A DNA stretch of 64,000 nucleotides from Candidatus Rokubacteria bacterium 13_1_40CM_69_27 (GCA_001917535.1 MNEF01000098.1:45241-109240); one strand, 5' to 3'. Shown: positions 12,008 through 60,025, counted from the first letter of the stretch. Numbers and translations are program-made. Notes: generated by a model from the letters alone, not told the origin.

Positions 12008-13518
12008 AAGGAGGACCCTCGGGTGGCCGTGAGGTAGTCGGTCTTGGCGCGGTCCAGCTCCGCGATGACGGCGCGGCGCTCGGCGATCAGCTCACGCGCG
12101 GCCTGGTCGCGCGTGAGCGCCAGCACGCCGAAGCGCAGCACGCGCCGGAGCCGGCCGAGCCCGCGGAAGTAGTGATAGGCCACCACGCCGGTGAGGGGCA
12201 GCGAGAGCGCGAAGAGGGCGGCCCAGCCCCGGCCGGCGAGGCGCGCCACCAGCCCGACCTCGAGCCCCCAGAAGAGGGGAAAGGCGACGATGCTGGCCAG
12301 CAGCCGCGTCGTCGCGTAGTCGGTCTCCTTGCGCGCGGTGGCCCGAGCGAGCCAGCGGGGCACGAAGTAGGGCAGCGCGTTGACGGCGGCGCCGTAGACG
12401 AACACGGGGAAGCCCGCGATGGCGCCCCCGGTGCGCCGGAGGCGCCGCCGGATCGGCGAGTGTCCCAGCCGCGCCTGCACCGCCTCGTCCTTCACCCGGT
12501 AGGCGCGGAGGAGGGCACGGTAGCCCTGTATCCGCTGCCAGATTCGCTCGACCCGCTTCGGCTCGCGCGCCTTGAAGTACTGCACCGCGTCCACGATCGT
12601 GCGCGACAGGCGGAAGAGATCGATCTGCCTGTCAGCGAGCCCGCGCTCCTCCCTCAGCTCGCGGATCAGCTCGCCCCGATAAAGCTCCTCCACGGCCCGG
12701 ACGACCTCGGCGGCCTCGATCCGGTCCACGTGCACCACTTGGGCCTCCATGGCCCACTGGATCGCCGTGGTGAGCGCCTCCACGCCCTTGGTGGCGTCGG
12801 CGTGGTAGGCCGCGACGTACGCGGCGATCGGGATCGGCTCGCCGAAGGAGACGAGCACCCGCCCCCTGAACGACTTGCGTGCTTCGAAGGACAGGCCGAC
12901 CGGAATGAGCCGCAGCTCGCCGGGATGGTCCACCTCGTAACCCAGGGCGATGCGGGCGGCGCCGGTCCTGATGCGCTGGACGCGGGCCTCGGCGTGGGTG
13001 GTGCCCTCGGGATAGATCGCGATGAGCCGGCCCTCGGCGAAGGCCCGATGACATGCCGCGAAGACGTCGGCGTTGCGGTCGGCTCGTCGGCTCGCCTCGG
13101 GCGCAGGGGGCGAGTTTGATTCGCTCGCCTCGCGCGCGGGGGCCCCAGCCCCCGGCCGCGCTGCGGCTCGCCCTGCGGCTCGCACTGCCATCTTGTCCGG
13201 GTCGTCCTGTCTCCGGTAGACGGGGATGGCGCCGCAGGCGGCGAGGAAGCACGCCAAGAGCGGATTGCGGAAGAGCGCGGCGGTGGCCAGATAGTGTGCC
13301 TTGCGGGTGAGGACGGCGCCGACCAGCAGGGAGTCGATGAGGTTGTTGGGGTGGTTGATGCAGAGCAGGACCGGCCCCCGCTCCGGCACCCGCTCGGAGT
13401 GCCGCGCGTCCACGCGCTTGAAGAAGAACCACAGCCAGAACCGCGCGATCAGCCGGACGGCCACGTAGAAGCGATCGCTCCCGGATGCGGCCGGAGCCTC
13501 GGCGACGGTCGTCGTCAT
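12004..13518 (-). CDS. Lysophospholipid/1-acyl-sn-glycerol-3-phosphate acyltransferase (PlsC family) with a C-terminal membrane extension and an internal low-complexity insertion
   Basis: The start is the ATG at 13518 (MTTTVAEAP). It has the HX4D motif NHPNNLID and the IYPEGTTH motif. A 33-aa insertion, AVRAAGRAAARPGAGAPAREASESNSPPAPEASRRADR, lies between motifs II and III and is encoded by the repeat family 2 copy. The 150-aa arginine-rich N-terminus of the tracked ORF is rejected. Confidence 0.75.
   Translation of the reverse strand: MTTTVAEAPAASGSDRFYVAVRLIARFWLWFFFKRVDARHSERVPERGPVLLCINHPNNLIDSLLVGAVLTRKAHYLATAALFRNPLLACFLAACGAIPVYRRQDDPDKMAVRAAGRAAARPGAGAPAREASESNSPPAPEASRRADRNADVFAACHRAFAEGRLIAIYPEGTTHAEARVQRIRTGAARIALGYEVDHPGELRLIPVGLSFEARKSFRGRVLVSFGEPIPIAAYVAAYHADATKGVEALTTAIQWAMEAQVVHVDRIEAAEVVRAVEELYRGELIRELREERGLADRQIDLFRLSRTIVDAVQYFKAREPKRVERIWQRIQGYRALLRAYRVKDEAVQARLGHSPIRRRLRRTGGAIAGFPVFVYGAAVNALPYFVPRWLARATARKETDYATTRLLASIVAFPLFWGLEVGLVARLAGRGWAALFALSLPLTGVVAYHYFRGLGRLRRVLRFGVLALTRDQAARELIAERRAVIAELDRAKTDYLTATRGSSF
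13078..13190. repeat. Direct-repeat family 2 (GCTCGCCTCGGGCGCAGGGG-type) inside the plsC-like coding sequence
   Basis: ggctcgcctcgggcgcaggggg at 13088-13109, gattcgctcgcctcgcgcgcggggg at 13116-13141 and a degenerate gcggctcgccctgcggctcgcactgcc unit after that. Near-identical units are at 59916-60025. Confidence 0.7.
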
Positions 13519-14057
13519 CTGCCGGCGTGGCGCTTGAGCAGGCTGTCGAAGTCCTCCACCGTCAGGCTCTCCGCCCATTCCACCGCCTCGGAGTCGTGGC
13601 CGTAAGACTCGGCCATGTAGGTCATCGCCTCCCGCTTCGTCGAGAAGAGCCGCCACAGGTGGCCGGGGCCGCCGCCCCGCCGCCGCAGGTGGAAGGCGGG
13701 ATCGGTGGGCGTCTGGGGCTGATAGGTGGTGCGCTGGCCGAAGCGATCCAGGGTGATCCAGGCCACGGCGATACCGTGCGCGGAGAGTACCCGCGTCCTC
13801 AGCGAGTCCTCGGGCGGGAGCGAGTCGATGTCGCGGAGCTGGGGCCCGTAGTAGACGGGGACGCCTTCGCCGGGCAGCGTGAGCCGCGCGCTGAGCGGCT
13901 CGCCGACCGAGTCGAGCAGCGCCTTGGACTCTTCGCTCACCCAGACGAGCCCGGGCGTATAGAGGTCGGCCCACGCCTCGATCACGCTGCCGGCGGGCAG
14001 CAGGGGGCGCCGCCTCGCGATCTCGTCTCCTCCGGCGATGAGATAGAGGCGTCTCAC
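13515..14057 (-). CDS. Hypothetical protein with no recognised domain, embedded in the methylcitrate-type operon
   Basis: The GTG at 14057 overlaps the prpF stop (GTGA) and its stop overlaps the plsC-like start. The protein reads VRRLYLIAGGDEIARRRPLLPAGSVIEAW... Confidence 0.5.
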   Translation of the reverse strand: MRRLYLIAGGDEIARRRPLLPAGSVIEAWADLYTPGLVWVSEESKALLDSVGEPLSARLTLPGEGVPVYYGPQLRDIDSLPPEDSLRTRVLSAHGIAVAWITLDRFGQRTTYQPQTPTDPAFHLRRRGGGPGHLWRLFSTKREAMTYMAESYGHDSEAVEWAESLTVEDFDSLLKRHAGR

Positions 14058-15154
14058 GGAATCCTCACGAACCCTTCCATCAGGCGACGCGCCGTTCGGT
14101 AGACGGTCACGCACTCCGCCCACGGTTGGCCGTCGCGAATGGTCACCGTGGCGGCGACGGGCAGCACGCCCGACGGGTGGCCGAGCCTGAGATCACCCTC
14201 CTTGCCGCCGAGCGCGCATTCGTGGACCACCGTGCCCTCGACGCGGGCGGCCACCGCCAGACACATGGCGGCGGTCAGCGCGAAGGCCCGGTGACAGTTG
14301 CCCATCGACATGACGCGCGCCAGCAGGTCGACCTGGTCGGAGGCGTAGGGTGTCCCGTCGAGCGCCCGGAAGGGCGCGGCCCGAGCGACAACCGCGATCT
14401 TGGGGACGGCGGCGCTTCCGGGAACGCCCATCCGGCCGGCGGCCTCGACCCGGATCGCCTCGAGGCGGGCCCCGACCGCGCGATCGGCATCGATCGCCTC
14501 CGGCGTCTCGGCGCCCGTGAGCCCGAGATCCCGGGCCCGGACGAAGACCACGGGGTTGGTGGCGTCCACCAGCGAGGCCTCCACGCCGCCGACCGCGTCG
14601 CGCGGCCGGCCCGTCGGCAGCAGCCGCTCGGTGGCCGCGCCGCCGGGGTCGAAGAAGTCGAGCGCGATCCTGGCGCCGCTGCCGGGCACGCCGGCCAGCT
14701 CGAAGTCACCTTCCACCGCCGCCTCGCCGTCCTTCACCGGCACGTGGGCCACGATGATCTTCCTGGTGTTCGTGTTGTGGATCCGCACGATCTTCTCGTC
14801 GGCGCCGGCGGGTACGATCTTCTCGTCGATGGCGAACGGGCCGACAGTGGCCGAGCAGTTGCCGCAGTTGCCGGCGTAGTCCACGACGGGGTTCCTCACG
14901 TCGACCTGGGCGAACGTGTAGTTCACATCGGCGTCGGAACGGGTGGGCGGGCCGATGATACACGCCTTGGAGAGCGACGAGATGCCGCCGCCGAGACCGT
15001 CGAGCTGCCGGCCGTAAGGGTCGGGGCTGCCCAGCGCGGCGAGGAGGATGCGATCGCGCGCCGGCCCCGGATGCGGCAGGTCCTCCTCGTGGAAGACGAG
15101 GCACCGGCTCGTCCCGCCACGCATGTAGACGGCCCGGACCCGGCGCTGCGTCAT
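14054..15154 (-). CDS. prpF: PrpF family 2-methylaconitate isomerase (PrpF/AcnD-accessory)
   Basis: 366 aa reading MTQRRVRAVYMRGGTSRCLVFHEEDLP...CGNCSATVGPFAIDE..., the PrpF/methylaconitate isomerase family signature. Confidence 0.8.
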   Translation of the reverse strand: MTQRRVRAVYMRGGTSRCLVFHEEDLPHPGPARDRILLAALGSPDPYGRQLDGLGGGISSLSKACIIGPPTRSDADVNYTFAQVDVRNPVVDYAGNCGNCSATVGPFAIDEKIVPAGADEKIVRIHNTNTRKIIVAHVPVKDGEAAVEGDFELAGVPGSGARIALDFFDPGGAATERLLPTGRPRDAVGGVEASLVDATNPVVFVRARDLGLTGAETPEAIDADRAVGARLEAIRVEAAGRMGVPGSAAVPKIAVVARAAPFRALDGTPYASDQVDLLARVMSMGNCHRAFALTAAMCLAVAARVEGTVVHECALGGKEGDLRLGHPSGVLPVAATVTIRDGQPWAECVTVYRTARRLMEGFVRIP

Positions 15155-15157
15155 ATC

Positions 15158-15298
15158 CTCGGAGGGGGGTTACGCCCCCTTTCCTCCGTCGGAGGGGGCC
15201 GTCGAGGCCCCCTCCGAGATCCCTGGTCGGAAGGGGCCTCGCGGCCTCCTCCGAGCTACCCCAGAGGATTGCGCCGGCGGAGCCGGCGCTCGAAGCGT
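15158..15298. repeat. Cluster of three REP-like units plus the conserved tail, between the aconitase gene and prpF
   Basis: A degenerate unit at 15158-15188, the perfect unit tcggagggggcc gtcga ggccccctccga at 15189-15217, the variant tcggaaggggcc tcgc ggcctcctccga at 15227-15254, and the tail ccccagaggattgcgccggcggagccggcgctcgaa at 15256-15292. Confidence 0.85.
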
Positions 15299-15327
15299 CG
15301 TCGTCCCCCGCGCTGCGACCGATGGGG

Positions 15328-17247: not shown

Positions 17248-17249
17248 GC

Positions 17250-18380: not shown

Positions 18381-18462
18381 GGCCGGCTCCTCGTGAGGGC
18401 TCTACGGTAGACTGGGGGTCCGCCCCGCGCAAGACCGGGCGGCCGCGTGTATCCTCGGCCCG

Positions 18463-20358: not shown

Positions 20359-20369
20359 TGGTCGGCTCC

Positions 20370-22222: not shown

Positions 22223-22238
22223 ACGCCCCTCCTGGTTG

Positions 22239-23909: not shown

Positions 23910-23974
23910 GGGGGCCCGATCATAAACCCGCAGCTCGCTTGATTCCAAGGGGGGTGCCCGGTACGCTCTCAGGC

Positions 23975-27536: not shown

Positions 27537-28231
27537 CGGCGACGGCGAGGACGGTGGACCGCGTTACGCGCGGTGCCGGAGCCCGCGCCGTAGGCGTCGA
27601 CGACCTCGCCCAGCTCGGCCCGCTCGTCGGGCCCCAGCGCCCGCTCGAGAACGCTCGCCGCGTGCCGGAGGACGGTGGCGTCCCGGGCTCGGGTGGCGCG
27701 CACCGCCAGGGCCTCCATCAGAAGCGCGCCGTAGGCGTCGAGCGCCTCGCCCGTGAGCCTGGGGCCGGCGGCGGCGACGAGCCGGCCGAGCCGCGGATAG
27801 TGCGGGGGGCTGTGGACCAGCACGGCGTCCTCGTGCGCCGCGTGGTAGGCCGCGAGGTCGCGGGTGCGGGGCGGGGTCGCCCAGCCGGCCTTCTTCTTCC
27901 ACGGGCAGACGCGGCAGGCGACCGACGAGCACGGCGGCGTAGAGCCCGCGGCCCGCCCCCGGGGGCGGCCGTCCGCGTGGTACACGAGAACACGGAAGGC
28001 CCCGCAGGAGGGCGACGCGCGCTTGAGGACGTAGCCGTCGAGGCCGAGTCGTCGGGCGGGGCACGCCGAGGCCGACCTCGACTCCGGGCAGACGGGCACC
28101 CACTCGACGAAGGGGCCGAGCGTCGCGGTGAGGAACGGATCGCGTTTGTCGCCGCCGTCGTAGCGGACACGCTCGCCCAGCAGGCACGCCGAGATTCCGA
28201 GGCGGGGCTTTTCGGACTCGATTTTCGGCAT
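27449..28231 (-). CDS. DUF523 + DUF1722 fusion protein (YbgA-like)
   Basis: The start is the ATG at 28231, giving MPKIESEKPRLGISACLLGERVRYDGGDKRD...VPVCPE (DUF523 N-terminus), then LKRASPSCG, then a DUF1722-like C-terminus (LAAYHAAHEDAVLVHSPPHYPRLGRLVAAA). The central part of DUF523 is shortened and the conserved GLxxPRP segment appears in another frame. The 3' end overlaps hemY by 88 nt. Confidence 0.5.
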   Translation of the reverse strand: MPKIESEKPRLGISACLLGERVRYDGGDKRDPFLTATLGPFVEWVPVCPESRSASACPARRLGLDGYVLKRASPSCGAFRVLVYHADGRPRGRAAGSTPPCSSVACRVCPWKKKAGWATPPRTRDLAAYHAAHEDAVLVHSPPHYPRLGRLVAAAGPRLTGEALDAYGALLMEALAVRATRARDATVLRHAASVLERALGPDERAELGEVVDAYGAGSGTARNAVHRPRRRRQPSWARPRRTRSAALSPDLTQSAMPTPP

Positions 28232-31540: not shown

Positions 31541-31569
31541 TCGGAGGGGGCCGTCGAGGCCCCCTCCGA
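31541..31569. repeat. REP-like palindromic element
   Basis: tcggagggggcc gtcga ggccccctccga, a perfect 12-bp stem, lying between convergent genes (the permease and the ferredoxin-like protein). Confidence 0.85.
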
Positions 31570-31573
31570 CTGG

Positions 31574-41455: not shown

Positions 41456-42244
41456 ATGGTGGTTCGGCGCTGCGTCTGGCATCGCAAGTATCGCGGGTAC
41501 CCCCTCGTGTACGGCGTCGCCTCGTGGCGCGACCCGAGCATCGCCTTCAGCGATGGCATCTGCCGCCGGTGCACCGTCCGCCTGCGGGAGGACCTGCGGT
41601 TTCCCCCTCACGTGGTGGACTCGGCGCCGGAGGCGCCGGCGTGGGAGCCGCTGGTGCCGGGGACCGCGGTCGCGCTCGCCGTCATCGCGACGCTGCTGAT
41701 CGTCACGCAGCCCCTCGACGCGCCCCCGCCGGCGCGGATCGTGACGCCCGAGCCCCCGCGGGCCGTTGTCGACGCGGCCCTCGATCGCGCGGTCCGGATC
41801 GAGTCGCGGGGGGTGAGCCGGCCGGGCCCGCACCGAACCGTCACGACGAGGTCCAAGGCAGACGAGTCGGCGCTGCCGAGAGCGGCGGTGGCGATGCGTC
41901 CAGGGCGGCCTCTCCTCGCATCGGCAACGGGGGCCCGCCCGGCAGCCGCGAGCCCGCCCGGAGTGATCGCGTTCAACGACCGCGCGGCCGCGGGCGCCGG
42001 GTTGGGGATGCAGGCCCCCGAGGTCATCGAAGGGGGCCTCGACGCCCCCTGCGAGCCTCTCCCAGAGCCGATTGCGCCCGCGAAGCCGGCACTCGAACCG
42101 CGGTTACTCCGACAGCCCCTAGCCGACGCGGCGCCGCCTCAGGCGTGCGAGGGGCCGGCGGTGTCCTCGGCGCGCACCGGCGTCCGGCCACGCAGGAAGT
42201 CGAAGTCGCAGCCCTCGTCGGCTTGCAGCACGTGGTCGAGGTAG
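41456..42244 (+). CDS. Hypothetical Cys-rich membrane protein with a Pro-rich tail
   Basis: It starts MVVRRCVWHRKYRGYPLVYGVASWRDPSIAFSDGICRRCTVRL, a C-x2-H...C-x2-C zinc-ribbon-like module. This is followed by one TM helix (AVALAVIATLLIV) and then a long Pro/Ala-rich region whose 3' end overlaps the convergent dehydratase gene by about 100 nt. Confidence 0.35.
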   Translation: MVVRRCVWHRKYRGYPLVYGVASWRDPSIAFSDGICRRCTVRLREDLRFPPHVVDSAPEAPAWEPLVPGTAVALAVIATLLIVTQPLDAPPPARIVTPEPPRAVVDAALDRAVRIESRGVSRPGPHRTVTTRSKADESALPRAAVAMRPGRPLLASATGARPAAASPPGVIAFNDRAAAGAGLGMQAPEVIEGGLDAPCEPLPEPIAPAKPALEPRLLRQPLADAAPPQACEGPAVSSARTGVRPRRKSKSQPSSACSTWSR

Positions 42245-43872: not shown

Positions 43873-43919
43873 GAGTGCCTCCCGGGGCACTCGATTATAG
43901 AGGAGATCGGAGGAAACGA

Positions 43920-44717: not shown

Positions 44718-44756
44718 TGCCGGGCCAACTGACTTCCCCGTGGTGGTGATGTACTG

Positions 44757-45935: not shown

Positions 45936-45941
45936 TGGGTC

Positions 45942-46724: not shown

Positions 46725-46856
46725 CGGGCTGTCCGCTTCCTGGTCACTGTCTGTCAGGCTGACACCCTGCCCGGCCGCCGAGGGATCGGAACCCCTCGAA
46801 AGATCACGTCGGCCTCGCCGTGACGGCGTGGCCCCGGTCTTGCTCTACCGGCCGCC

Positions 46857-47375: not shown

Positions 47376-47410
47376 GCGCGCGTCGGACTAAGCTCCGTTA
47401 ATAGGCAGAG

Positions 47411-47683: not shown

Positions 47684-47746
47684 CCGGCGATTGGAGCGGC
47701 CCGACGTAGAGCCGTTCGAGCGCGGGCTTCGCCCGCGCAATCCTTG

Positions 47747-47787
47747 CTGGGGGAGGTTTCGGAGGGGGCCGTCGAGGCCCCCTCCGA
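47747..47787. repeat. REP-like palindromic element (full unit with leader)
   Basis: ctgggggaggtt tcggagggggcc gtcga ggccccctccga, lying between convergent genes (the small membrane protein and the DJ-1 gene). Confidence 0.85.
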
Positions 47788-47792
47788 CTAGA

Positions 47793-48374: not shown

Positions 48375-48379
48375 GGCCG

Positions 48380-49075
48380 TCAGGCGAACGCGCGGGCGAT
48401 GGCGAAGGCGGCGCCGGCGGCCAGCCCGCCGATCAGCGCCGTCTGGAGCGCGCTCCGCGCGGGCGGCGCCCCGGTGAAGCGCGCCTTGATGTACCCGAAG
48501 ACCAGCAGGGCCACGATGGTGACGACGACCGAGACCGTCAGGGCGCTGGTCGCCTTGGGGAAGACGATGTACGGCCAGAGCGGGATGAGCCCGCCCATGA
48601 CGTAGGCGCCGCCGATCGTCAGCGCGCTCGCCAGCGCCCGGCCTGGATCGGGCCGCTCGAGGCCCAACTCGAAGCGCATCATGAAGTCGACCCACCCCTC
48701 CGGGTGCCGTTTCAAGGCGTCGACGAGGGGCCGGGCCTCTTCCGCCTTGACGCCGTAAGTCTCCAGGACCTCGACCACTTCCGCCGCCTCCGCCTCGGGC
48801 TTCTCGCGGACCTCGCGCTGCTCGCGCCGGCGCTCGCTCTCATAATGCTCGGCGTCGCTCCGGGCCGCCAGGTAGCCGCCGAGGCCCATGGCCAGAGCGC
48901 CGGCGGCGATCTCGGCGAGTCCCGCCACCACGATGATCCACGTGGCGTCAATGACCCCCGTGAGCCCCGCCGCCAGCGCGAAGGGCACGGTCAGCCCGTC
49001 CGCCATGCCGAGCACGAGGTCGCGCACGGTCCGGTTGCCCGTGAAGTGCCGCTCGGGGTGCGCCACCGGAATCAT
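48380..49075 (-). CDS. VIT1/CCC1 family iron/manganese transporter
   Basis: The start is the ATG at 49075 (MIPVAHPERHF...DLVLGMADGLTVPFALAAGL). It has a central acidic cytoplasmic helix region (EVREKPEAEAAEVVEVLETYG). Confidence 0.75.
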   Translation of the reverse strand: MIPVAHPERHFTGNRTVRDLVLGMADGLTVPFALAAGLTGVIDATWIIVVAGLAEIAAGALAMGLGGYLAARSDAEHYESERRREQREVREKPEAEAAEVVEVLETYGVKAEEARPLVDALKRHPEGWVDFMMRFELGLERPDPGRALASALTIGGAYVMGGLIPLWPYIVFPKATSALTVSVVVTIVALLVFGYIKARFTGAPPARSALQTALIGGLAAGAAFAIARAFA

Positions 49076-49602
49076 CCCTCGATGGACGCGATGCCGTGCT
49101 TGTGGCGCTGGGCCAGGGCTTGGTAACCGGTGGGATTGGCGCGCACCCAAAACTCGGCCGGGGTCCCGGCCAGGGGCCCCTTGATCTTGGCGGGCGCGCC
49201 GAGGGCGAGCATGCCCTCCGGAATCTCGGTGCCCGGTGTGACCAGGGCGCCGGCGGCGATCATGGCTCGCGCTCCGATCCGGGCGCCGTCGAGGACGGTC
49301 GCCCCGTTGCCGACGAGCGCTTCCTCACCGAGGGTGGCGCCGTGGACCACGCAGGTGTGACCGATCGTCGCGCCGGCACCCACTTCCACCGGATTGACGG
49401 GCGTCACATGGACGACGGCGCAGTCCTGGACGTTGGCGCCCCGCCGGATGACGATCGGACCAAAGTCAGCCCGGATGACGGCGTTGTACCAGATGGAGGC
49501 GTTCTCCTCGACCGTGACGTCGCCGATCAGGACCGCGGTCGGCGCGATGAACGCGGACGGGTGCACGTGGGGGTGCTTTCCCTCGAAGCTGAACAGTGGC
49601 AT
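49072..49602 (-). CDS. Gamma-class carbonic anhydrase / hexapeptide-repeat (CaiE/PaaY-like) protein
   Basis: 176 aa reading HPSAFIAPTAVLIGDVTVEENASIWYNAVIRAD with left-handed beta-helix repeats. Confidence 0.8.
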   Translation of the reverse strand: MPLFSFEGKHPHVHPSAFIAPTAVLIGDVTVEENASIWYNAVIRADFGPIVIRRGANVQDCAVVHVTPVNPVEVGAGATIGHTCVVHGATLGEEALVGNGATVLDGARIGARAMIAAGALVTPGTEIPEGMLALGAPAKIKGPLAGTPAEFWVRANPTGYQALAQRHKHGIASIEG

Positions 49603-49675
49603 GGGGCGGGCCCTCGCAGTATGCTCGGAATCGGTTCCTATCTTACGCGAAGTCCTTCGGGCGATGGAGGGTGGA

Positions 49676-50701
49676 ATGCCGATGCCGAGGATCGCCGCCG
49701 TGGCGACGGCGACGCCCCCCTACCGGTTCACGCAGTCCGACCTGCTGGCGCTGTCCGGCTACACCGACGCGCAGCGCCGCGGCTTCTTCGAGCGCAGCGA
49801 GATCGAGAGCCGCTTTCTCTACATCGACCCCCGGCGCTTCCGTCCCGACGAGAGCGTGGATGAGCTGCAGGACCGCTTTCGGCGCGGCGCGCTGGAGCTC
49901 TCGGAGGCGGCGGCGCGGGGGGCGCTGGCGCGGGCCGGCTGGACGGCGGGCGACGTGGACTTCGTGGCCACCACCACCTGCACCGGGCGCCTCACCCCCA
50001 GCCTGGACGCTCACCTGATCGGGCGCCTCGGCTGTCGGGCCGACGTCCAGCGCGCGCACATCGGTGACACCGGCTGCGCCTCCGCGATGGTGGCGCTGCA
50101 GCAGGCGTGGAATCATCTCCACGCCTTCCCGGAGCACCGCGCGCTCGTGGTGGCGGTGGAGATCTGCTCGGCCGCGTACTTCCTCGATCAGCGCCTGGAG
50201 TCGGCGGTCGCCCACGCCATTTTCGCCGACGGCGCCGGAGCCCTGGCGCTGTCGGCTACCGGCCAGGGCCCTGCCGTCGTGGCCCACCGCACGCTCTTCA
50301 GACCCGAGCATCTCGACGCCATGGGCTTCGAGTATCCCGGCGGCCGCCCCCGGGTGGTCCTCTCCAAGGACGTGCGTCGCATCGGCGCCGGCATGCTCGA
50401 CGAGATGACGAAGGTGTTGATGGACGCGCAGGGGCTCAAGCGCGAGGATATCCGCCACTGGATCCTGCACTCGGCGGGGCGGCGCGTGCTCGATCGCGCG
50501 CGCGTGCTGCTCGCGCTCACCGAGGAGCAGATGGCGCACGCGCGGGCGGTGCTGAGAAAGTACGGCAACATGTCATCGGCGACGATCCTCTTCGTGCTCG
50601 AGGAGATGCTACGCGCCGAGTCGACGGTGCCGGGCGACTGGGGGCTCATGATCGGCCTCGGGCCCGGGTTCGCGGCCGAGGGCGCCCTGCTCAGATGGTA
50701 G
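49676..50701 (+). CDS. Type III polyketide synthase (chalcone/stilbene synthase family)
   Basis: It has the Cys-His-Asn triad context (TTTCTGRLTPSLDAHL, GCASAMVALQQA, ILHSAGRRVL, GPGFAAEGALLRW). The ATG at 49676 has a GGAGGG site 4 nt upstream, with alternatives at 49664 and 49682. Confidence 0.85.
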   Translation: MPMPRIAAVATATPPYRFTQSDLLALSGYTDAQRRGFFERSEIESRFLYIDPRRFRPDESVDELQDRFRRGALELSEAAARGALARAGWTAGDVDFVATTTCTGRLTPSLDAHLIGRLGCRADVQRAHIGDTGCASAMVALQQAWNHLHAFPEHRALVVAVEICSAAYFLDQRLESAVAHAIFADGAGALALSATGQGPAVVAHRTLFRPEHLDAMGFEYPGGRPRVVLSKDVRRIGAGMLDEMTKVLMDAQGLKREDIRHWILHSAGRRVLDRARVLLALTEEQMAHARAVLRKYGNMSSATILFVLEEMLRAESTVPGDWGLMIGLGPGFAAEGALLRW

Positions 50702-50824
50702 TGCGAGCCGCAGGACGGCCGGGGGCGGGGGCCCCCGCGTCCGAGGCGAGCCGATGAATCGAGTGGTGCGAGCCGCAGGACGGCCGGGGGCGGGGGCCCC
50801 CGCGTCCGAGGCGAGCGGTGTCCC

Positions 50825-51499
50825 ATGGTGATGCAGCGCGCGGAGGGAGCGATCGAGTATCTGGACCGGCCCGTGCCGTGGGCGGATCGCGACGCCTCGC
50901 TCGACGACATCGATCGCCTCAACGCCTGGTTCGGCGGCTACTGGCTGACGCTGCGCGAGGTCCGCCGCCTCGCCGGGGCGGCGGCGGCCGGGCCGGCGCT
51001 GCTGGTCGTCGACGTCGGCGGCGGCCGGGGGGACTTTGCCCACCGGCTGATCGACTGGGCCCGGCGCGGGGGACGCGCGGTCCGCGTCGTCGTGGTCGAC
51101 CGGGAGTGCGCGGGCGACGGCGCCGGCATTCTCCGGGTGAGGGCGGACGCGACGGCGCTGCCCTTCCGGGAGGGCGCGGCCGACGTCGTCACGGCGTCGC
51201 TGACGCTCCACCACCTCGAGCCCGACGCCGCGGTCGCGTCGCTGCGGGAGATGCGGGCGACGGCGCGCGGGGCGGTGGTGGTCAACGACCTGCTACGCTC
51301 GCGGCTCACGCTGGGGCTCGTGTGGCTGGTGACGCGGCTCTTCTGCCGCCACCGCTTCTCGCGCCACGACGGGCCGCTCTCGGTCCGCCGCGCGTATGCG
51401 GCGGAGGAACTGCGGGTGCTGGCCGACAAAGCCGGCCTCGCGCGCGTGGCGATCCGGCGCTATCCGTGGCTCGGCCGGATCGTGGCGGTGCTGGCATGA
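50825..51499 (+). CDS. Class I SAM-dependent methyltransferase
   Basis: It has SAM motif I, VVDVGGGRGDF. It is coupled to the downstream gene by an ATGA overlap. Confidence 0.75.
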   Translation: MVMQRAEGAIEYLDRPVPWADRDASLDDIDRLNAWFGGYWLTLREVRRLAGAAAAGPALLVVDVGGGRGDFAHRLIDWARRGGRAVRVVVVDRECAGDGAGILRVRADATALPFREGAADVVTASLTLHHLEPDAAVASLREMRATARGAVVVNDLLRSRLTLGLVWLVTRLFCRHRFSRHDGPLSVRRAYAAEELRVLADKAGLARVAIRRYPWLGRIVAVLA

Positions 51500-52698
51500 G
51501 GCCGGGGGCGGACGTCATCGTCGTCGGCGCCGGCCCAGCCGGCGCGGCGACCGCCATCCTCCTGGCGGAGCGGGGCCTCGAGGTCCTCGTGCTCGACCGG
51601 GCCAAGTTCCCCCGCCCGAAGATCTGTGGCGAGTATCTGAGCCCCGAGGCCGTGCGCATCCTCGACGGCCTCGGCGTGCTCAAGGCCCTCGACGCGGCCG
51701 GCGCGGCGCTGGTGATGGGCATGCGGATCACCGCCCCCGACGGCACGGTCGTCGCCGGTACCTATCGTCCGGTGGGGCCGTGGCAGCCCTATCGAGGGCA
51801 CGCGATGGGGATCACGCGCTCGAGGCTGGACGGCGCGCTGGTCGATCGGCTCCGTGCCCTGCCCGTGGACTTCCGCGAGCAGGTGCGCGTCACCGACGTG
51901 CTCGGCGACGGTGACCGGATCGTCGGCGTCGAGGCCATCGACGTCGAGGGGCGCCGGCGCACCTTTCGCGCGCCGTTGGTGGTGGGCGCCGATGGCCGGG
52001 CCTCGGTGATCGCCCAGCGGCTGGGGTGCCGCCGACCCCACCGCCTGCGGCGCATGGCCCTCGTCACCTACGTGGCGGGGCTGCCGGACTGCCGCGACGC
52101 CGGCGAGATCTTCGTGGACCCGCCCGACTACGCGATCCTGAACCCGCTGTCGCCCGACCGCGTGAACATGAGCGTCGTCGTCCCGCTCGAGCACGTGACG
52201 CCGTGGAGCGATCGGCTGGACGTCTTCTTCGCCGCGCGCGTCAGGCAGTTGCCGCATCTGGCCCGGCGCGTGAGCGGCGCCGAGCGGGTCGCGCCGGTGC
52301 AGGCGATGGGGCCGCTCGCCTACCGGGTGCGGCCGCCGCGGGTGGGGGGCGTGTTGCTGGTCGGCGACGCCGCCGGCTTCTACGACCCGCTGACGGGCGA
52401 GGGCGTCTTCAGCGCCCTGCGCGCGGCCGAGCTGGCGGCGGAGACGGCTGCGCAGGCGTTCCGGGTGGGCGACTGGTCGGCGGCGACGCTGGCCGCCTAT
52501 GAGCGGGCCCGGCGCGCCTGCTTCGGCGACAAGGAGCGCTTCGTCCGGGCGCTCCAGGCCGTCATCCGGCGTCGCTGGCTGGCGAACGTCGCGGCGCGCG
52601 CCCTGGCGCGCCGCCCGGCACTCCTCGACCTCCTGCTCGGTGTCGCCGGCGACTACGTTCCAGCCCGCGCGTTGCTGGCCGGTCTCCGGACGCGTTGA
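51496..52698 (+). CDS. FAD-dependent oxidoreductase (geranylgeranyl-reductase/flavin monooxygenase family)
   Basis: The start is the ATG at 51496 (MRPGADVIVVGAGPAGAATA, a dinucleotide-binding motif). It also has GDAAGFYDPLTGEG. The 225-aa N-terminal extension of the tracked ORF is rejected. Confidence 0.8.
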   Translation: MRPGADVIVVGAGPAGAATAILLAERGLEVLVLDRAKFPRPKICGEYLSPEAVRILDGLGVLKALDAAGAALVMGMRITAPDGTVVAGTYRPVGPWQPYRGHAMGITRSRLDGALVDRLRALPVDFREQVRVTDVLGDGDRIVGVEAIDVEGRRRTFRAPLVVGADGRASVIAQRLGCRRPHRLRRMALVTYVAGLPDCRDAGEIFVDPPDYAILNPLSPDRVNMSVVVPLEHVTPWSDRLDVFFAARVRQLPHLARRVSGAERVAPVQAMGPLAYRVRPPRVGGVLLVGDAAGFYDPLTGEGVFSALRAAELAAETAAQAFRVGDWSAATLAAYERARRACFGDKERFVRALQAVIRRRWLANVAARALARRPALLDLLLGVAGDYVPARALLAGLRTR

Positions 52699-52771
52699 AG
52701 CTTCGGGCGGGGGCGCTCCCGGCCTAAGCTAGCGCTGGTGCCGCTCTCTAACCTCTTCCGAGGAGCCGACG

Positions 52772-53437: not shown

Positions 53438-53484
53438 CGGCGTGTTGGAGTACGCACCGGATCTGGACTCCTCCCGTTCGAGCG

Positions 53485-53550
53485 CCGGCTTTGCCGGCGC
53501 CACCTGTTCCTGGGGGAGGTTTCGGAAGGGGGGCGAAGCCCCCCGCCGAG
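53485..53550. repeat. REP-like element (variant) plus a short hairpin
   Basis: gccggc ttt gccggc at 53485-53501, then ctgggggaggtt tcggaagggggg cgaa gccccccgccga at 53510-53549. It lies between convergent genes (the RraA-family gene and the M23 peptidase). Confidence 0.75.
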
Positions 53551-53554
53551 GCTC

Positions 53555-54973: not shown

Positions 54974-55023
54974 ACCACGGCGGTTGCTTGACACCCCTCC
55001 GGGCCCTTGGCTAGATTGGCGCG

Positions 55024-56898
55024 GTGTCCATCGCCGTCTGGCTGATCCCCGCCTTTCCGCTCGCCGGCGCGCTGGTCAACATGCTCTTCGGGCGCGTCAT
55101 CCGCTCGCGCGCTCACTGGATCGCGGTGCCCGCGCTGGCCGGATCGTTCCTGGCCGCCTGTGCGGTCTTCGCGGGGATCTGGAGCGGCCGCACCATCGCC
55201 CCCCGGCTCTTCCCCTGGATCGTTGCCGGCGACTTCGAAACGTCGGTCGCGGCGCACGTCGATCCGCTCGCCGGCGTCATGCTGCTGGTCGTCACCGGTG
55301 TCGGCTTCCTCATCCACCTCTACTCGGCGGGCTACATGCGCGGCGACCCCGGGTATGCCCGCTACTTCGCCTACCTGAACCTCTTCGTCTTCTCCATGAC
55401 GATGCTGGTGCTGGCCGGCAACTTCCTGCTCCTCTACGTGTTCTGGGAAGCGGTGGGCCTCTGCTCCTATCTCTTGATCGGCTTCTGGTACACGCGCCCG
55501 GCGGCTGCGCAGGCGGGCAAGAAGGCGTTCATCGTCAACCGCGTCGGCGACTGCGGCTTCGGCCTGGGCGTCATGTGGCTCTGGACCGCGCTGGGCACGC
55601 TGGACTACGCCGACGTCTTCGCCAAGGTCCCCGAGCTCTCGCCGGCGGTCGCCACCGGCATCGCGCTCCTGCTCTTCATGGGGGCGTGCGGAAAGTCGGC
55701 GCAGCTGCCGCTCCACACGTGGCTGCCGGACGCGATGGAGGGCCCGACGCCGGTCTCCGCGCTCATTCACGCCGCCACCATGGTCACCGCGGGCGTCTAC
55801 ATGGTCGCGCGGAGCCACGCGCTCTTCGAGCGCTCGGGCCTGGCGCTGGAGGTGGTGGCGTGGGTCGGCGTGGTCACCGCGCTGTTCGCCGCCACCGTCG
55901 GGCTCGTCCAGACCGACATCAAGCGCGTGCTGGCCTACTCCACGATCAGCCAGCTCGGGTACATGTTCGCCGCCGTCGGGCTCGGTGCCTACGCGGCCGG
56001 CATCTTTCACCTGGTGACGCACGCCTTCTTCAAGGCGCTCCTCTTCCTGGGCGCCGGCAGCGTCATCCACGCGCTCGGCGGCGAGCAGGACCTCCGGAAG
56101 ATGGGCGGGCTGGCCCCCAAGATGGTGCCGACCGCGCTCACCATGGCCATCGGCGCGGCCGGGCTGGCCGGCGTGCCCGGCCTGGCCGGCTTCTTCTCGA
56201 AGGACGAGATCCTGGCCTCCGCGTTCGGGGGCGGGCACCGCCTGCTCTGGGCGTTGCTGCTGATGGGCGCCTTCCTTACGGCCTTCTATGCGTTCCGCCT
56301 GCTCTTCCTGGCTTTCTTCGGCGGCCCCCGCATGCCGCGCGAGGTGGCCCATCACGTCCATGAATCGCCGGCGGTGATGACGGCGCCGCTGGCCGTGCTG
56401 GCACTCCTCACCGTGGTAGCCGGTTGGGCCGTGGGCGTGCCGTCCGAGCAGGGCACGCGCTTCGCCCGGTTCCTGGCCCCCGTCTTCCCGCTCCCCGCGG
56501 CCGAGCCCAGCGGCCTCGTCACCTACGTCCTGCTCATGCTCAACGTGGTCGTGGTCACGGCGGGCATCATGCTGGCGTGGTTCATGTACATGTCGGCCCC
56601 GGTGCGGCCGGAGAGGATCGGCCGCCCGCGCACGCCGATCCACGCCCTGCTGCTGAACGCCTACTACGTCGACGGGCTGTACGATCGCGCCATCGTGCGG
56701 CCGCTGCTGGCCCTGTCGACGTACCTGGCCCGCGTCGTCGACCTCGGCCTGGTCGACGGTCTGGTGAACCTGACCGGGCGGGCCGTCCTGGCCTGGGCGG
56801 CGGGGCTCCGGCGCGCCCAGACGGGGTACGTCGTGAACTACGCGCTCACGATGCTGGTGGGCGCGGTGGTGCTGGTCGGTTTCCTGCTCATCCGATGA
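55024..56898 (+). CDS. nuoL: NADH-quinone oxidoreductase subunit L
   Basis: 624 aa with a GTG start. It reads KSAQLPLHTWLPDAMEGPTPVSALIHAATMVTAGVY, and the long C-terminal amphipathic helix region is present. Confidence 0.9.
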   Translation: MSIAVWLIPAFPLAGALVNMLFGRVIRSRAHWIAVPALAGSFLAACAVFAGIWSGRTIAPRLFPWIVAGDFETSVAAHVDPLAGVMLLVVTGVGFLIHLYSAGYMRGDPGYARYFAYLNLFVFSMTMLVLAGNFLLLYVFWEAVGLCSYLLIGFWYTRPAAAQAGKKAFIVNRVGDCGFGLGVMWLWTALGTLDYADVFAKVPELSPAVATGIALLLFMGACGKSAQLPLHTWLPDAMEGPTPVSALIHAATMVTAGVYMVARSHALFERSGLALEVVAWVGVVTALFAATVGLVQTDIKRVLAYSTISQLGYMFAAVGLGAYAAGIFHLVTHAFFKALLFLGAGSVIHALGGEQDLRKMGGLAPKMVPTALTMAIGAAGLAGVPGLAGFFSKDEILASAFGGGHRLLWALLLMGAFLTAFYAFRLLFLAFFGGPRMPREVAHHVHESPAVMTAPLAVLALLTVVAGWAVGVPSEQGTRFARFLAPVFPLPAAEPSGLVTYVLLMLNVVVVTAGIMLAWFMYMSAPVRPERIGRPRTPIHALLLNAYYVDGLYDRAIVRPLLALSTYLARVVDLGLVDGLVNLTGRAVLAWAAGLRRAQTGYVVNYALTMLVGAVVLVGFLLIR

Positions 56899-58421
56899 CG
56901 GTAGGGATCCTCTCGGCGGTGACGTTCCTGCCCGCCGCCGGTGGGCTGGCGCTGGCGCTGGTGCCGCGCCATCGCGCGAACGCCCTGCGGGGGGGCGCGC
57001 TCGTCGTGGCCCTGGCCACCTTCGCGCTGTCGTTGCCGCTCTACGTCGCGTTCGACGCGGAGTCGGCCGATTACCAGTTCGAGGTGTACGCGCGCTGGAT
57101 GCCCACACTCGGCGTGGGCTACCACCTGGGCATCGACGGCATCAGCCTGCTGCTGGTCCTCCTGACCACGTTCCTGATGCCGATCGCGCTCCTCTCGGCG
57201 TGGCACGCGATCGACGATCGCCCCAAGGAGTTCGTGGTGACCATGCTCGTTCTCGAGACGGGCATGCTCGGCGTCTTCGTGAGCCTCGACCTGTTCCTCT
57301 TCTACGTCTTCTGGGAGGCCATGCTGATCCCGATGTACTTCATCATCGGGGTCTGGGGCGGGCCCAGCCGCGTCTACGCGGCGGTCAAGTTCGTCCTCTA
57401 CACGATGCTCGGCTCCGTGCTGATGCTGCTGGCCATCCTGGCCCTCTACTACCAGCACGGCGCCGCCACCGGGACGTTCACCTTCGACCTGCCGACGCTG
57501 GCCCGCTGGGTGGTGCCGGCCGGGCTCGGGCAGCACCTCATGTTCCTGGCCTTCGCGCTGGCGTTCGCCATCAAGGTGCCCCTCTTTCCCTTCCACACCT
57601 GGCTGCCGGACGCGCACGTGGAAGCGCCTACGGCCGGCTCGGTCATCCTGGCCGGCGTCCTGCTCAAGATGGGCACCTATGGCTTCCTGCGCTTCTGCCT
57701 GCCGCTCTTCCCCGACGCCAGCCTCGCCTTCGGTCCCCTGATCTTCGCGCTGGCCGTGATCGGGATCGTCTACGGCGCCTGGGTGTCGACCGTCCAGCCC
57801 GACCTCAAGAGGCTCGTCGCCTACTCGAGCGTGAGCCACCTCGGCTTCGTCATGCTGGGGATCTTCACGCTGAACACCCAGGGGCTCGTGGGCGGACTCA
57901 TCCAGATGGTCAATCACGGGCTCTCGACGGGCGCGCTCTTCCTCCTGGTGGGCATGATCTACGAGCGCCGGCACACGCGCCTCATCGCCGACTTCGGGGG
58001 CCTCTGGAAGGTCGTGCCGGCCTTCTCGGCGGTGCTGCTGCTGGTGTCGCTCTCGTCCCTGGGCCTGCCCGGGCTGAACGGGTTCGTGGGCGAGTTCCTG
58101 ATCCTCGTCGGCGTTTTCCAGGTCAACCGGCTGCTCGCCGCCGCGGCCACCACCGGAATCATCTTCGCGGCCGTCTATCTGCTGTGGATGTACCAGCGGG
58201 TGATCTTCGGCGAAGTGACGCGCGAGGAAAACCGCCGGCTGCCCGACCTCACGCCCCGCGAGTGGGCGGTGATGGCGCCGGTGATCGTGTTCATCGTGTG
58301 GATCGGCGTCTACCCGGCCGCCTTCACCGGACCCACCGAGGCCACGATCGATGCGTTGATCGCCCAGGTCGAATCGAAGGCCAGCGTGGCCGCCGAGCCG
58401 GTGCGGACCTCGCGGCGATGA
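56895..58421 (+). CDS. nuoM: NADH-quinone oxidoreductase subunit M
   Basis: The ATG at 56895 overlaps the nuoL stop (ATGA). It reads KVPLFPFHTWLPDAHVEAPTAGSVILAGVLLKMGTYG. Confidence 0.9.
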   Translation: MTVGILSAVTFLPAAGGLALALVPRHRANALRGGALVVALATFALSLPLYVAFDAESADYQFEVYARWMPTLGVGYHLGIDGISLLLVLLTTFLMPIALLSAWHAIDDRPKEFVVTMLVLETGMLGVFVSLDLFLFYVFWEAMLIPMYFIIGVWGGPSRVYAAVKFVLYTMLGSVLMLLAILALYYQHGAATGTFTFDLPTLARWVVPAGLGQHLMFLAFALAFAIKVPLFPFHTWLPDAHVEAPTAGSVILAGVLLKMGTYGFLRFCLPLFPDASLAFGPLIFALAVIGIVYGAWVSTVQPDLKRLVAYSSVSHLGFVMLGIFTLNTQGLVGGLIQMVNHGLSTGALFLLVGMIYERRHTRLIADFGGLWKVVPAFSAVLLLVSLSSLGLPGLNGFVGEFLILVGVFQVNRLLAAAATTGIIFAAVYLLWMYQRVIFGEVTREENRRLPDLTPREWAVMAPVIVFIVWIGVYPAAFTGPTEATIDALIAQVESKASVAAEPVRTSRR

Positions 58422-59872
58422 GCCCGATCCCGGCGCCGCCGGTCGTGCTCGGCCCGCTCCTGCCCTCGCTGATCGTGGTCGGCACCGCCATCGTGGTGCT
58501 CCTGCTCGATCTCCTGCCGCCCCGCGCCAGCAAGGCGCACCTGGGCACCGTCGCCCTGGCCGGGCTGGTGGGGGCGCTCCTGGCCACCTTGAGGACGTGG
58601 GGCAGCGGCGGCCGCGCCTTCCACGACATGATCGTGCTGGACGACTACGCCCTCTTCTTCCACATCGTCATCTGCTACGCGGCGGCGCTGATCGTGCTCC
58701 TCTCGATGGATTACCTGCGTCGGGCCGGCGCCGAGTCGGGCGAGGGCTACGGCCTCATCCTCTTTTCCACCGCCGGCATGATGGTGCTCGCCTCCGCCAA
58801 TGACCTGATCGTCGTGTTCCTGGCCATCGAGCTGATGTCGCTTTCGCTCTACGTGCTGGCGGGGCTGTTCAAGCGACGGCGGGAGGCGGGCGAGGCGTCG
58901 ATGAAGTACTTCCTGCTCGGCGTGTTCGCCTCCGCCTTCCTCCTCTACGGCATCGCCCTGGTCTACGGCGCCACCGGCACGACCAACTTCGACCGCATCG
59001 TGGTGGCCGTGGGCGCGGGGCCGCGCGATCGGCTCTTCCTCATCGGGCTCGGGATGCTCATGGTGGGCTTCGGCTTCAAGATCTCGTCCGTGCCCTTCCA
59101 CATGTGGGCCCCGGACGTCTACCAGGGAGCGCCCACCAGCGTCACCGCGCTCATCGCCACCGGATCGAAGGCGGCGGTCTTCGCGGCACTCATCCGCCTG
59201 CTGGTGGCCGGCCTGCGCACGATCCAGCCGGACTCCACCGCGCTGCTGTGGGCGCTGGCCGCGCTGACCATGACCGTCGGCAACGTCGTCGCCATCGCCC
59301 AGTCGAACCTCAAACGGATGCTGGCGTACTCCTCCATCGCCCACGTGGGGTACATGCTGGTCGGGCTGGTGGCCGGCGGCGCGCCGGGCGCCGGCGCCGT
59401 TCTCTTCTACCTGCTGGCGTACACCTTCACCACGGTGGGCACGTTCGGGGTGATCGCGCTCTGCGAGCGAGCGGGGCAGGAGGCGGTCGAGGTGCGCGAC
59501 TACGCGGGGCTCGGGCGACGCCATCCGCTGCTGGCGCTCACGCTCGGCCTCTTCCTCCTGTCGCTGATCGGGATCCCGCCCCTGGCCGGCTTCGTCGGCA
59601 AGTTCTACCTCTTCGGCTCCGCGGTGCGCGCCGGCTACGTCTGGCTCGCCGTCATCGCCGTGCTCAACTCCGCCGTCGCCGCTTACTACTATCTGCGGGT
59701 GATCGTCTACATGTACATGCAGGAGCCGGAGGCGGCCTCGGCGTCGCTGGCGCCGTCTTTCGCCGGGGGCCTGGCGCTCGCGATCGCGCTCATCGGCATC
59801 GTGCTCCTCGGGGTGATGCCGGCGCCGTTCGCGGACCTCGCGCAGGCCGCCGTCGCCCCCCTGATCCGCTAG
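58418..59872 (+). CDS. nuoN: NADH-quinone oxidoreductase subunit N
   Basis: The ATG at 58418 overlaps the nuoM stop. It reads KISSVPFHMWAPDVYQGAPTSVTALIATGSK. Confidence 0.9.
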   Translation: MSPIPAPPVVLGPLLPSLIVVGTAIVVLLLDLLPPRASKAHLGTVALAGLVGALLATLRTWGSGGRAFHDMIVLDDYALFFHIVICYAAALIVLLSMDYLRRAGAESGEGYGLILFSTAGMMVLASANDLIVVFLAIELMSLSLYVLAGLFKRRREAGEASMKYFLLGVFASAFLLYGIALVYGATGTTNFDRIVVAVGAGPRDRLFLIGLGMLMVGFGFKISSVPFHMWAPDVYQGAPTSVTALIATGSKAAVFAALIRLLVAGLRTIQPDSTALLWALAALTMTVGNVVAIAQSNLKRMLAYSSIAHVGYMLVGLVAGGAPGAGAVLFYLLAYTFTTVGTFGVIALCERAGQEAVEVRDYAGLGRRHPLLALTLGLFLLSLIGIPPLAGFVGKFYLFGSAVRAGYVWLAVIAVLNSAVAAYYYLRVIVYMYMQEPEAASASLAPSFAGGLALAIALIGIVLLGVMPAPFADLAQAAVAPLIR

Positions 59873-59915
59873 TGCCGGCCCAAGTAACTTCGCCATACTT
59901 CGTTCTCGGACTTAC

Positions 59916-60025
59916 GCAGGCTCGCCTCGCGTACCGAGCACGCTGCGGCTTCGCACGAATGGTCTCAGGCTCGCCTCGGACGGGCGGGATTCTCCGGGTT
60001 CGCTCGCCTCGGGCGCAGGGGCCCA
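59916..60025. repeat. Direct-repeat family 2 (three units) at the truncation point of a CoA-transferase remnant
   Basis: caggctcgcctcgcg at 59916, caggctcgcctcggacgggcggg at 59966 and ttcgctcgcctcgggcgcaggggcc at 59998. The last unit is almost identical to 13088-13109. Confidence 0.7.

Follow-up and report, generated by a model that had tools for sequence, protein, structure and literature searches.

A hairpin-forming interspersed repeat family of Rokubacteria at operon junctions, within an acyltransferase gene and beside a truncated CoA-transferase gene

A stretch of 64,000 nucleotides from Candidatus Rokubacteria bacterium 13_1_40CM_69_27 (GCA_001917535.1, MNEF01000098.1:45241-109240; 71% G+C), referred to as the window, contains copies of a short GC-rich repeat at three loci. 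At locus A the repeat lies within the gene for a PlsC-family acyltransferase, at locus B between the genes for a type III polyketide synthase (PKS) and a class I methyltransferase, and at locus C between nuoN and the remnant of a family III CoA-transferase gene (Table 1). The original prediction had described near-identical units of 20-25 bp, repeated in tandem at loci A and C. These repeats are real and exceed chance: the 20-mer GCTCGCCTCGGGCGCAGGGG matches five times with at most three mismatches (0.08 expected), and the exact 10-mer GCTCGCCTCG seven times (1.33 expected), always within the three loci. Exact window matches of the 3'-terminal 13-mer CTGCGGCTCGCAC are confined to loci A and B. 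The third locus, which is intergenic and on the opposite strand, had been missed, and the unit had been taken as too short. A GC-rich hairpin core of 51 nt, whose 5' end is formed by the 20-mer, lies in a unit of about 65 nt, and loci A and C hold nested or partial composites of such units. A matching pattern at about 27653-27703 (reverse-strand offset 36297) turned out to be ordinary coding sequence and not a copy. Two other repeats of the window are distinct from this family. A palindromic one, TCGGAGGGGGCCGTCGAGGCCCCCTCCGA, occurs at 5319-5423, 10910-10940, 15189-15219, 31541-31571 and 47759-47789, with 2.7 tandem units of 36 nt at 5319-5416, and presumably is the first family implied by the original prediction. 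A third motif, GGGTTGCACCGGCGAAGCCGGCGCTCGAA, is located at 10955-10986, 15266-15297, 42069-42100 and 53477-53531; together with the GGAGGGGGCC family it makes up an 87%-complementary composite at 10929-10983 and 53477-53531.

On the strand that had been read originally, the consensus is GCTCGCCTCG-CACG-CGGGGGC-CCCA-GCCCCCG-GC-CGTG-CTGCGGCTCGCAC. Conserved flanks are present on the reverse strand, usually the sense strand, as well (GGCA before the core, CTATGAA after it), so that the full unit comprises about 62-65 nt. A tandem period of 65 nt is found at locus B and in the contigs L105 and L020. The core has exactly 51 nt, or 17 codons, in 151 of the 173 matches to both terminal anchors (87%), which were counted across all loci, include a few false ones and all come from Rokubacteria/Methylomirabilota genomes or soil metagenomes; in the other copies, about 13%, it measures 49, 50, 52, 53 or 55 nt and the frame is broken. 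There are zero stop codons in any of the six frames of the core. For the locus B copy a hairpin fold of -31 kcal/mol is predicted. When 32 distinct copies were aligned, the proposed helix was paired in 95.7% of the cells, compared with 34-48% after sliding the partners by 1-3 columns. Five stem pairs have changes on both sides, amounting to 32 cells, and none of 500 shuffles reached this value. The compensatory variants include CACG/CGTG, GACG/CGTC and CGCG/CGCG as well as CGGGGGC/GCCCCCG, GCGGGGC/GCCCCGC and GTGGGGC/GCCCCAC. The termini GCTCGCC.../...GGCTCGC pair only weakly. Most copies are located between the genes of operons, either as single units, as direct tandem arrays of variable number or as nested composites. 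The units of an array follow each other head to tail or are nested in the same orientation, and we did not come across inverted doublets. The layout of an outer half, a linker and an inner element, as present at loci A and C, recurs in L066, L095, L099, L104, L043, L081 and L111. Two familiar classes were rejected on inspection. CRISPR arrays are ruled out by the number of units (no more than 4-5 per array), the 65-nt period and the absence of unique spacers. Intrinsic terminators would require a T-run, which does not follow the hairpin, and copies occur within operons and within a gene.

At locus A the acyltransferase has retained its HX4D and YPEGTT motifs. It is otherwise intact and 70-94% identical to 52 orthologues, in which H56..D62 and Y169-T174 are invariant. 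The insert keeps the frame and separates motif II (IPVYRR) from motif III (YPEGTT), as originally proposed; its length, however, is not 33 but 36 residues (108 nt). About 100 of 120 aligned homologues show the uninterrupted sequence ...YRRQDDPDKM-DRNADVFAAC..., whereas the window protein has the additional residues between Met110 and Asp147, so the insert is not conserved among orthologues. The corresponding empty site in L108 reads AAG ATG|GAC CGC, and the same point carries 108 nt in the window and 126 nt in L107. Only L107, a relative with 93% identity, has the insert in common with the window, and its 18 extra nucleotides complete the outer hairpin. In both cases an inner element is nested in an outer one, the inner hairpin of the window being CGCG-CGGGGGC-CCCA-GCCCCCG-GC-CGCG. 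Owing to an 8-nt duplication at the distal edge, the length of the insert is a multiple of three. Its reading frame is that of the mini open reading frames (mini-ORFs) described below (AVRAAGR...PGAGAPAREAS). An AlphaFold (AF2) model of the acyltransferase, which is moderate overall (mean predicted local distance difference test score, pLDDT, 75; predicted template modelling score 0.59), has a pLDDT below 50 for residues 120-143 and of 86-89 in the flanks. This is consistent with an insert in a probably flexible, tolerated segment.

The same loop of an orthologue encoded in L111 (P0027) holds the same composite in the same orientation (nhmmer E = 3.5e-5; 88% identical over 51 nt to window positions 59967-60016 of locus C). 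There, DPDKM is replaced and the composite is partly read in another frame. Since the closer relatives P0003-P0009 have an empty site and the junction differs, comparison of the sequences suggests that L111 represents a second, separate insertion of the composite in this loop. At the same place, the short AVRGEPMNE of P0098 and DDPEASARQDRN of P0002 look, at the protein level, like remnants left by deletion. To see how often the family enters genes, we examined 134 non-redundant matches whose flanks measured 260 nt or more on either side. Seven of them passed an automatic in-frame test; on reading these seven, only three were judged convincing, all of them acyltransferase orthologues. The original idea that the repeat is tolerated inside protein loops thus holds for the acyltransferase and does not extend to other proteins among these 134 matches. 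Independently of the family, the loop between motifs II and III carries unrelated inserts in P0010, P0011, P0015, P0016, P0024, P0025, P0038 and P0039, and in L112 (6285-6560) repeats of about 57 nt give rise to the tandem peptide RPPSALPEHAAPATN in this loop. In view of these inserts in other lineages, the loop is a general hotspot for repeat-derived insertions.

Locus B comprises the two best-preserved copies of the window, which are intergenic. Here, the sense strand of the two units reads as two mini-ORFs that overlap the neighbouring genes. Mini-ORF 1 overlaps the PKS reading frame, its ATG being located 1 nt upstream of the stop codon of the latter. Mini-ORF 1 ends in CGATGA, the ATG of this junction starts mini-ORF 2, and the TGA of mini-ORF 2 in turn overlaps the second candidate start of the methyltransferase. 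A similar pattern is found across the family, as the sense strand of many units forms a mini-ORF of about 22 codons with a stop 3 nt past the core, typically as an ATGA overlapping the next start. In 68 of 159 non-redundant copies the stop is located exactly at +3; any other position or frame accounts for 11 copies at most. A search of 5.8 billion proteins with a 44-aa dimer profile of the peptide gave at least 12 matches, a number that is no measure of how frequent the peptide is. The database proteins carry the element peptide either as tandem mini-ORFs or as a C-terminal tail (P0139, P0143 and P0144). P0143 and P0144 bear the Pfam domains PF01174 and PF01634, and the tail peptide reads ...VRAAxRxGAGxPxxEAS. 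From these tails it follows that the repeat often supplies C-terminal extensions or misleads gene callers.

The genes around locus B deserve a remark of their own. Genes for a type III PKS, a methyltransferase and an FAD-dependent reductase follow one another at 49676-52698, an order that, we presume, resembles alkylresorcinol/alkylpyrone clusters of the srsABC type. The contig L126 (Ga0099828_10078368), compared with window positions 48376-52700, has 78.6% nucleotide identity over 48376-49625. It contains a hexapeptide-repeat gene, one repeat element and the FAD-dependent reductase gene, without type III PKS and methyltransferase genes. Over the 107 residues up to the contig end, the L126 reductase protein shares 72% identity with the product of the window gene at about 51.5-52.7 kb. 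As the PKS and methyltransferase genes are missing from L126, the repeat is situated at another breakpoint in gene content.

At locus C, a variant copy in which the hairpin is replaced is followed by the 5' half of an outer element, a linker and an inner element that is cut in its hairpin loop. The CoA-transferase frame continues directly from this cut. As had been noted at the outset, the gene lacks its N-terminal part, and the repeat marks its truncation point. The closest database relatives of the remnant are short as well, and their contigs show conserved synteny (nuoN, CoA_transf_3, HAD hydrolase, DAO). In the syntenic relatives, the CoA-transferase frame begins between a few and about 120 nt past the nuoN stop codon. 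We compared the junction with two of these contigs, L109 and L110, and found that homology to both resumes at ALGLD (about 60028), right after the cut element, which bears out the proposed deletion endpoint. Neither L109 nor L110 has a repeat at the nuoN/CoA-transferase junction. Their CoA-transferase genes are damaged in other ways, by a frameshift in L110 and an in-frame internal deletion in L109. With three different lesions in three genomes, the gene has, in this clade, the look of a pseudogene undergoing decay, and these sequences suggest a clade-wide loss of CoA-transferase function. As a side observation, the 47 nt from the nuoN stop codon to the first copy (59873-59919, TGCCGGCCCAAGTAACTTCGCCATACTTCGTTCTCGGACTTACGCAG) are unusually AT-rich for this genome and have no counterpart in L109 or L110.

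The best matches of the window acyltransferase come from metagenome-assembled genomes (MAGs) of Candidatus Rokubacteria/Methylomirabilota. A scan for GCTCGCCTCGSRCGCRGGGG in one genome per GTDB species matched at least 106 blocks. Among the matches listed, 26 blocks belong to Rokubacteria/Methylomirabilota (AR23, eight; AR26, five; nzgw243, five; and others), and every one of them contains the full element. In all of the 40 inspected blocks from other taxa, out of those listed (40 more were left uninspected), similarity ends at the 20-mer; therefore, these 40 are chance matches. Thus, among the matches listed, the family is specific to Rokubacteria/Methylomirabilota. At least 120 further contigs from soil and groundwater metagenomes contain a pattern of 25 specified bases, so further copies, on which the original proposal hinged, exist in number. 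An Rfam scan of the whole window returned no family at threshold, and a literature search linking Rokubacteria with repetitive extragenic palindromes (REPs) found no papers. The junction between coxM and coxS, the genes for the medium and small subunits of CO dehydrogenase, illustrates how the unit number changes. It holds two units in L020, four in L105, one in L217 and a composite in L081, and it is empty in L170. L020 and L105 differ by two units, with 97.5% identity between their CoxS proteins in the compared stretch of 81 N-terminal residues. The number of units at this junction varies in the manner of a variable number tandem repeat.

Table 1. Positions of the repeat copies, their host and neighbouring genes in the window, and of the loci compared in related contigs
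Feature	Position	Strand	Basis or remark
All loci: 10-mer GCTCGCCTCG sites	13090, 13123; 59920, 59969, 60002	+	exact search
All loci: 10-mer GCTCGCCTCG sites	50742, 50807	-	exact search
Locus A: PlsC-family acyltransferase gene, 504 aa	12004..13518	-	Pfam PF01553, E = 2e-15
Locus A: 8-nt tandem duplication GTCGGCTC, x2.1	13078..13094	+	Tandem Repeats Finder; distal edge of the insert
Locus A: composite insertion, 108 nt	13081..13188	+ (repeat orientation; host gene -)	encodes AVRAAGRAAARPGAGAPAREASESNSPPAPEASRRA, residues 111-146
Locus A: outer element, 5' half GCTCGCCTCGGGCGCAGGGGGCGAG	13090..13114	+	exact 20-mer match
Locus A: linker TTTGATTC	13115-13122	+	
Locus A: complete inner element	13123..13172	+	nhmmer E = 7e-14; a row of the covariation alignment A1
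Locus A: outer element, 3' remnant CTGCGGCTCGCAC + TGC	13173..13188	+	exact 13-mer match; adjoins CAT 13189-13191, the Met110 codon (-)
Locus B: type III PKS gene	49676..50701	+	Pfam Chal_sti_synt_C/N, ACP_syn_III_C
Locus B: PKS stop codon TAG	50699-50701	+	
Locus B: two full tandem units, 65-nt period	50693..50831	-	cores 50701-50751 and 50766-50816; 98% identical; nhmmer E = 3e-16, 5e-13
Locus B: mini-ORF 1, MVVRAAGRPGAGAPASEASR followed by stop	50695-50757	+	start ATG 50695-50697; end CGATGA
Locus B: ATGA junction	50754-50757	+	its ATG starts mini-ORF 2
Locus B: mini-ORF 2, MNRVVRAAGRPGAGAPASEASGVPW followed by stop	50754-50831	+	stop TGA 50829-50831
Locus B: candidate methyltransferase starts	50825, 50831	+	
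Locus B: class I methyltransferase gene	50825..51499	+	Pfam Methyltransf_25/11/23
Locus C: variant copy with both termini (GCTCGCCTCG ... CTGCGGCTTCGCAC), hairpin replaced by CGTACCGAGCACG	59920..59956	+	exact 10-mer match
Locus C: outer element, 5' half GCTCGCCTCGGACGGGCGGG + linker ATTCTCCGGGTTC	59969..60001	+	exact 10-mer match
Locus C: inner element cut in the hairpin loop, GCTCGCCTCGGGCGCAGGGGCCC (...GGGGCCC); deletion junction	60002..60024	+	exact 20-mer match
Locus C: family III CoA-transferase remnant, last ~139 codons	60025..60444	+	PF02515 (CoA_transf_3), positions 255-366 of 366
L110: CoA-transferase	2303-3528		~390 aa, essentially full length, split by frameshift
L109: CoA-transferase	5001-5708		235 aa, in-frame internal deletion of ~155 aa
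L020: coxM-coxS junction	1126-1259		
L105: coxM-coxS junction	1479-1740		
L217: coxM-coxS junction	424-490		
L081: coxM-coxS junction	655-717		
L170: coxM-coxS junction	about 3980		

Taken together, the repeat represents an interspersed family of hairpin repeats in Rokubacteria that had not been described before and is of a familiar, selfish-repeat type. Most probably, it is a non-autonomous, hairpin-forming family resembling REPs and the interspersed repetitive units of mycobacteria (MIRUs), and the window contains one in-frame insertion similar to those of the Rickettsia palindromic elements (RPEs) and one deletion scar. Within the family we observed filled/empty polymorphism, variation of tandem copy number and internal deletion between short direct repeats, and the acyltransferase loop appears to have been hit separately at one site. 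The original prediction had suggested that the repeat is mobile or prone to recombination. Filled and empty sites as well as dispersal were found, and from these we infer mobility.

A mechanism that would connect these features can be outlined as follows. A trans-acting activity recognising the hairpin would copy the element to new sites, preferably to stop/start junctions of operons, and the AAG-ATG-GAC of the acyltransferase gene may mimic such a target. The short direct repeats with which the units end would allow arrays to grow, shrink and decay through slippage or recombination. At locus A, a nested composite probably landed right after the ATG of Lys-Met and was kept as an in-frame insertion. 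At locus B, two units bridge the PKS and methyltransferase genes via overlapping stop and start codons. At locus C, a deletion with one end in the inner hairpin loop probably removed the remainder of the element together with about 250 codons of the CoA-transferase gene.

Several observations weigh against this interpretation. No target-site duplication is present at the single clean pair of filled and empty sites (AAGATG|GACCGC versus AAGATG-(108 nt)-GACCGC). A search for a transposase or mobilising gene near the elements gave no candidate, since a crude regular expression for the HUH motif (xPxHxHxx) came back empty over 1.07 Mb of flanks. Likewise, when 396 open reading frames within 1.5 kb of elements were clustered, only housekeeping families recurred, namely ABC ATPases, short-chain dehydrogenases/reductases (SDRs), CO dehydrogenase subunits and pyruvate dehydrogenase E1. 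As regards coupling to the neighbouring genes, the +3 stop of the mini-ORF is absent from 57% of the copies, and about 13% have frame-breaking cores. A downstream sense gene was detected in 32 cases, and in 15 of these it shares its frame with the ATG of the ATGA, where about 11 would be expected. According to a hand tally, about 20 of 28 arrays are sense relative to the adjacent gene, a modest bias, and the orientation of locus C is opposite to that of its neighbouring genes. Moreover, a single junction cannot show that the repeat or its hairpin caused the deletion. Because the CoA-transferase gene is decaying independently in relatives, the repeat need not have been the cause.

It is instructive to compare the family with known systems. 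IS1397-type elements, which are insertion sequences (ISs), insert into the loops of REPs. The nested composites are similar in that an outer unit encloses an inner unit and a linker between its two arms; here, however, what is inserted is a further copy of the small repeat itself rather than an IS with a transposase. In comparison with miniature inverted-repeat transposable elements, the single filled/empty pair provided no target-site duplication, and no candidate parent IS was found. With REPs and bacterial interspersed mosaic elements (BIMEs) the family shares short GC-rich imperfect palindromes that are abundant, mostly extragenic in or after operons, arranged in mosaics and lineage-specific. 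It differs from them by its inconsistent GTAG head, by direct or nested arrays in place of inverted pairs and by the longer core of 51 nt, and the crude scan of the flanks gave no REP-associated tyrosine transposase (RAYT).

MIRUs, as summarised in a review, have a unit length of 40-100 bp and form direct tandem arrays that lie between operon genes (Supply et al. 1997 in PMC12548453). Further features are a small ORF running along the flanking genes, whose stop overlaps the next start with a spacing of -4 (ATGA), insertion at or beside start codons, and copy numbers that differ among close relatives (PMC12548453). The Rokubacteria family likewise has 65-nt units in direct arrays between co-oriented genes, copies at or beside start codons, and a unit copy number that differs between related genomes (coxM-coxS). 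At locus B, a mini-ORF stop clearly overlaps the downstream start. Unlike MIRUs, it has a strong covarying hairpin and nested composites, occurs in another phylum, has the +3 stop in only about 43% of the copies and includes one composite copy inside a gene. The likeness to MIRUs concerns the layout only, and no sequence relationship is expected. RPEs are about 100-150 bp long, and about half of their copies are intragenic (PMC10969869). Locus A is comparable, as a palindromic repeat lies in frame within a metabolic gene, adding a peptide and leaving the gene otherwise intact. On the other hand, the convincing intragenic cases, three of 134, fall into a single gene family, and a large intragenic fraction was not seen. 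By analogy, the family would be closest to MIRUs in its working, to REPs and BIMEs in its looks and, at locus A, to RPEs.

Among the alternatives to a selfish REP/MIRU-like family, the one that survives best takes the repeat for a strict-sense REP family whose mobilisation depends on a RAYT encoded elsewhere in the genome. We regard this as possible, though rather unlikely. Short GC-rich imperfect palindromes that are abundant, mostly extragenic and arranged in arrays are what this explanation calls for. Upstream of GTGCGAGCC, position -3 is a G in 91% of the copies, and some array-first units begin with GTAG-TGCGAGCC or GTAG-TGGCA-GTGCGAGCC. The GTAG head is nevertheless inconsistent and occurs in some copies only, position -2 being C in 44% and T in 42% and position -1 being A in 53%. 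The arrays are direct or nested, which is unlike the inverted doublets typical of REPINs, and the HUH-motif scan of the flanks, crude as it is, gave no ORF. A gene between inverted copies in L031, considered as a RAYT candidate, reads by its sequence motifs as an arginyl-tRNA synthetase and was discarded.

Somewhat less probable still is the view that the unit is a selected cis-acting RNA device, in which the hairpin stabilises or processes the operon mRNA and the mini-ORF passes ribosomes on to the next gene, so that copies are kept for their function and not as selfish DNA. The elements are indeed flanked by a stop codon on one side and by the next Shine-Dalgarno sequence or start on the other, ATGA junctions are common, the hand tally corresponds to a sense bias of about 70% of the arrays, and the comparable case of MIRUs is read by the review as a coupling that minimises polar effects (PMC12548453). 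The compensatory stem changes fit such a device, but they are equally expected if a mobilising enzyme recognises the hairpin in DNA. This view is difficult to reconcile with copies in both orientations and inside or beside a dead gene, with a copy number that varies freely among close relatives, with the many copies that lack the +3 stop or have frame-breaking indels, with an orthologous junction that has no element (L170) and with the absence of an Rfam family.

That the junction at locus C is an assembly artefact, with contigs misjoined or collapsed at the repeat and the CoA-transferase gene in reality intact, is highly improbable. The window probably stems from a metagenome assembly, in which interspersed repeats often break or join contigs. 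Nonetheless, gene order is conserved on both sides of the junction, and an artefact would therefore need a loss of about 750 nt within one locus. A repeat copy inside the CoA-transferase gene is not expected and is absent in L109 and L110, and the same gene has different lesions in these two independent assemblies. Convergence of low-complexity GC-rich or Ala/Pro/Gly-rich coding sequence can practically be dismissed: although the genome is GC-rich and many unrelated GC-rich genomes contain single chance occurrences of the 20-mer alone, the copies are mostly intergenic and on both strands, which already refutes it, and about 55-65 nt of DNA sequence, including a covarying hairpin, are conserved in many genomes.

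Returning to the selfish, hairpin-forming family, a more specific and admittedly tentative picture is that it may have become adapted to coexist with translation. With its stop-free core of 17 codons, its own start and the ATGA overlap, the unit could, without causing polar effects, become established where stop and start codons meet in operons and, on occasion, at an ATG inside a gene if the protein loop is flexible. It might spread by a hairpin-directed mechanism that does without a nearby transposase. The loops of other copies could serve as targets, too, and the nested composites would be the outcome. The repeated hits in the acyltransferase gene would then reflect the AAG-ATG-GAC mimicry.

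Rokubacteria/Methylomirabilota constitute an abundant, uncultivated soil phylum for which the searched literature and Rfam gave no described repeat family. A defined family with a profile helps to explain spurious small ORFs, odd C-terminal tails such as those of P0139, P0143 and P0144, and contig breaks in MAGs. Furthermore, it offers what would be another instance, from a distant phylum, of MIRU-style repeats preserving gene coupling, and a non-rickettsial case of a palindromic repeat held in frame within an enzyme. The acyltransferase loop, apparently hit at least twice by the family and bearing other repeat-like inserts in addition, represents a natural experiment in which tolerance of insertions can be weighed against preference for a target.

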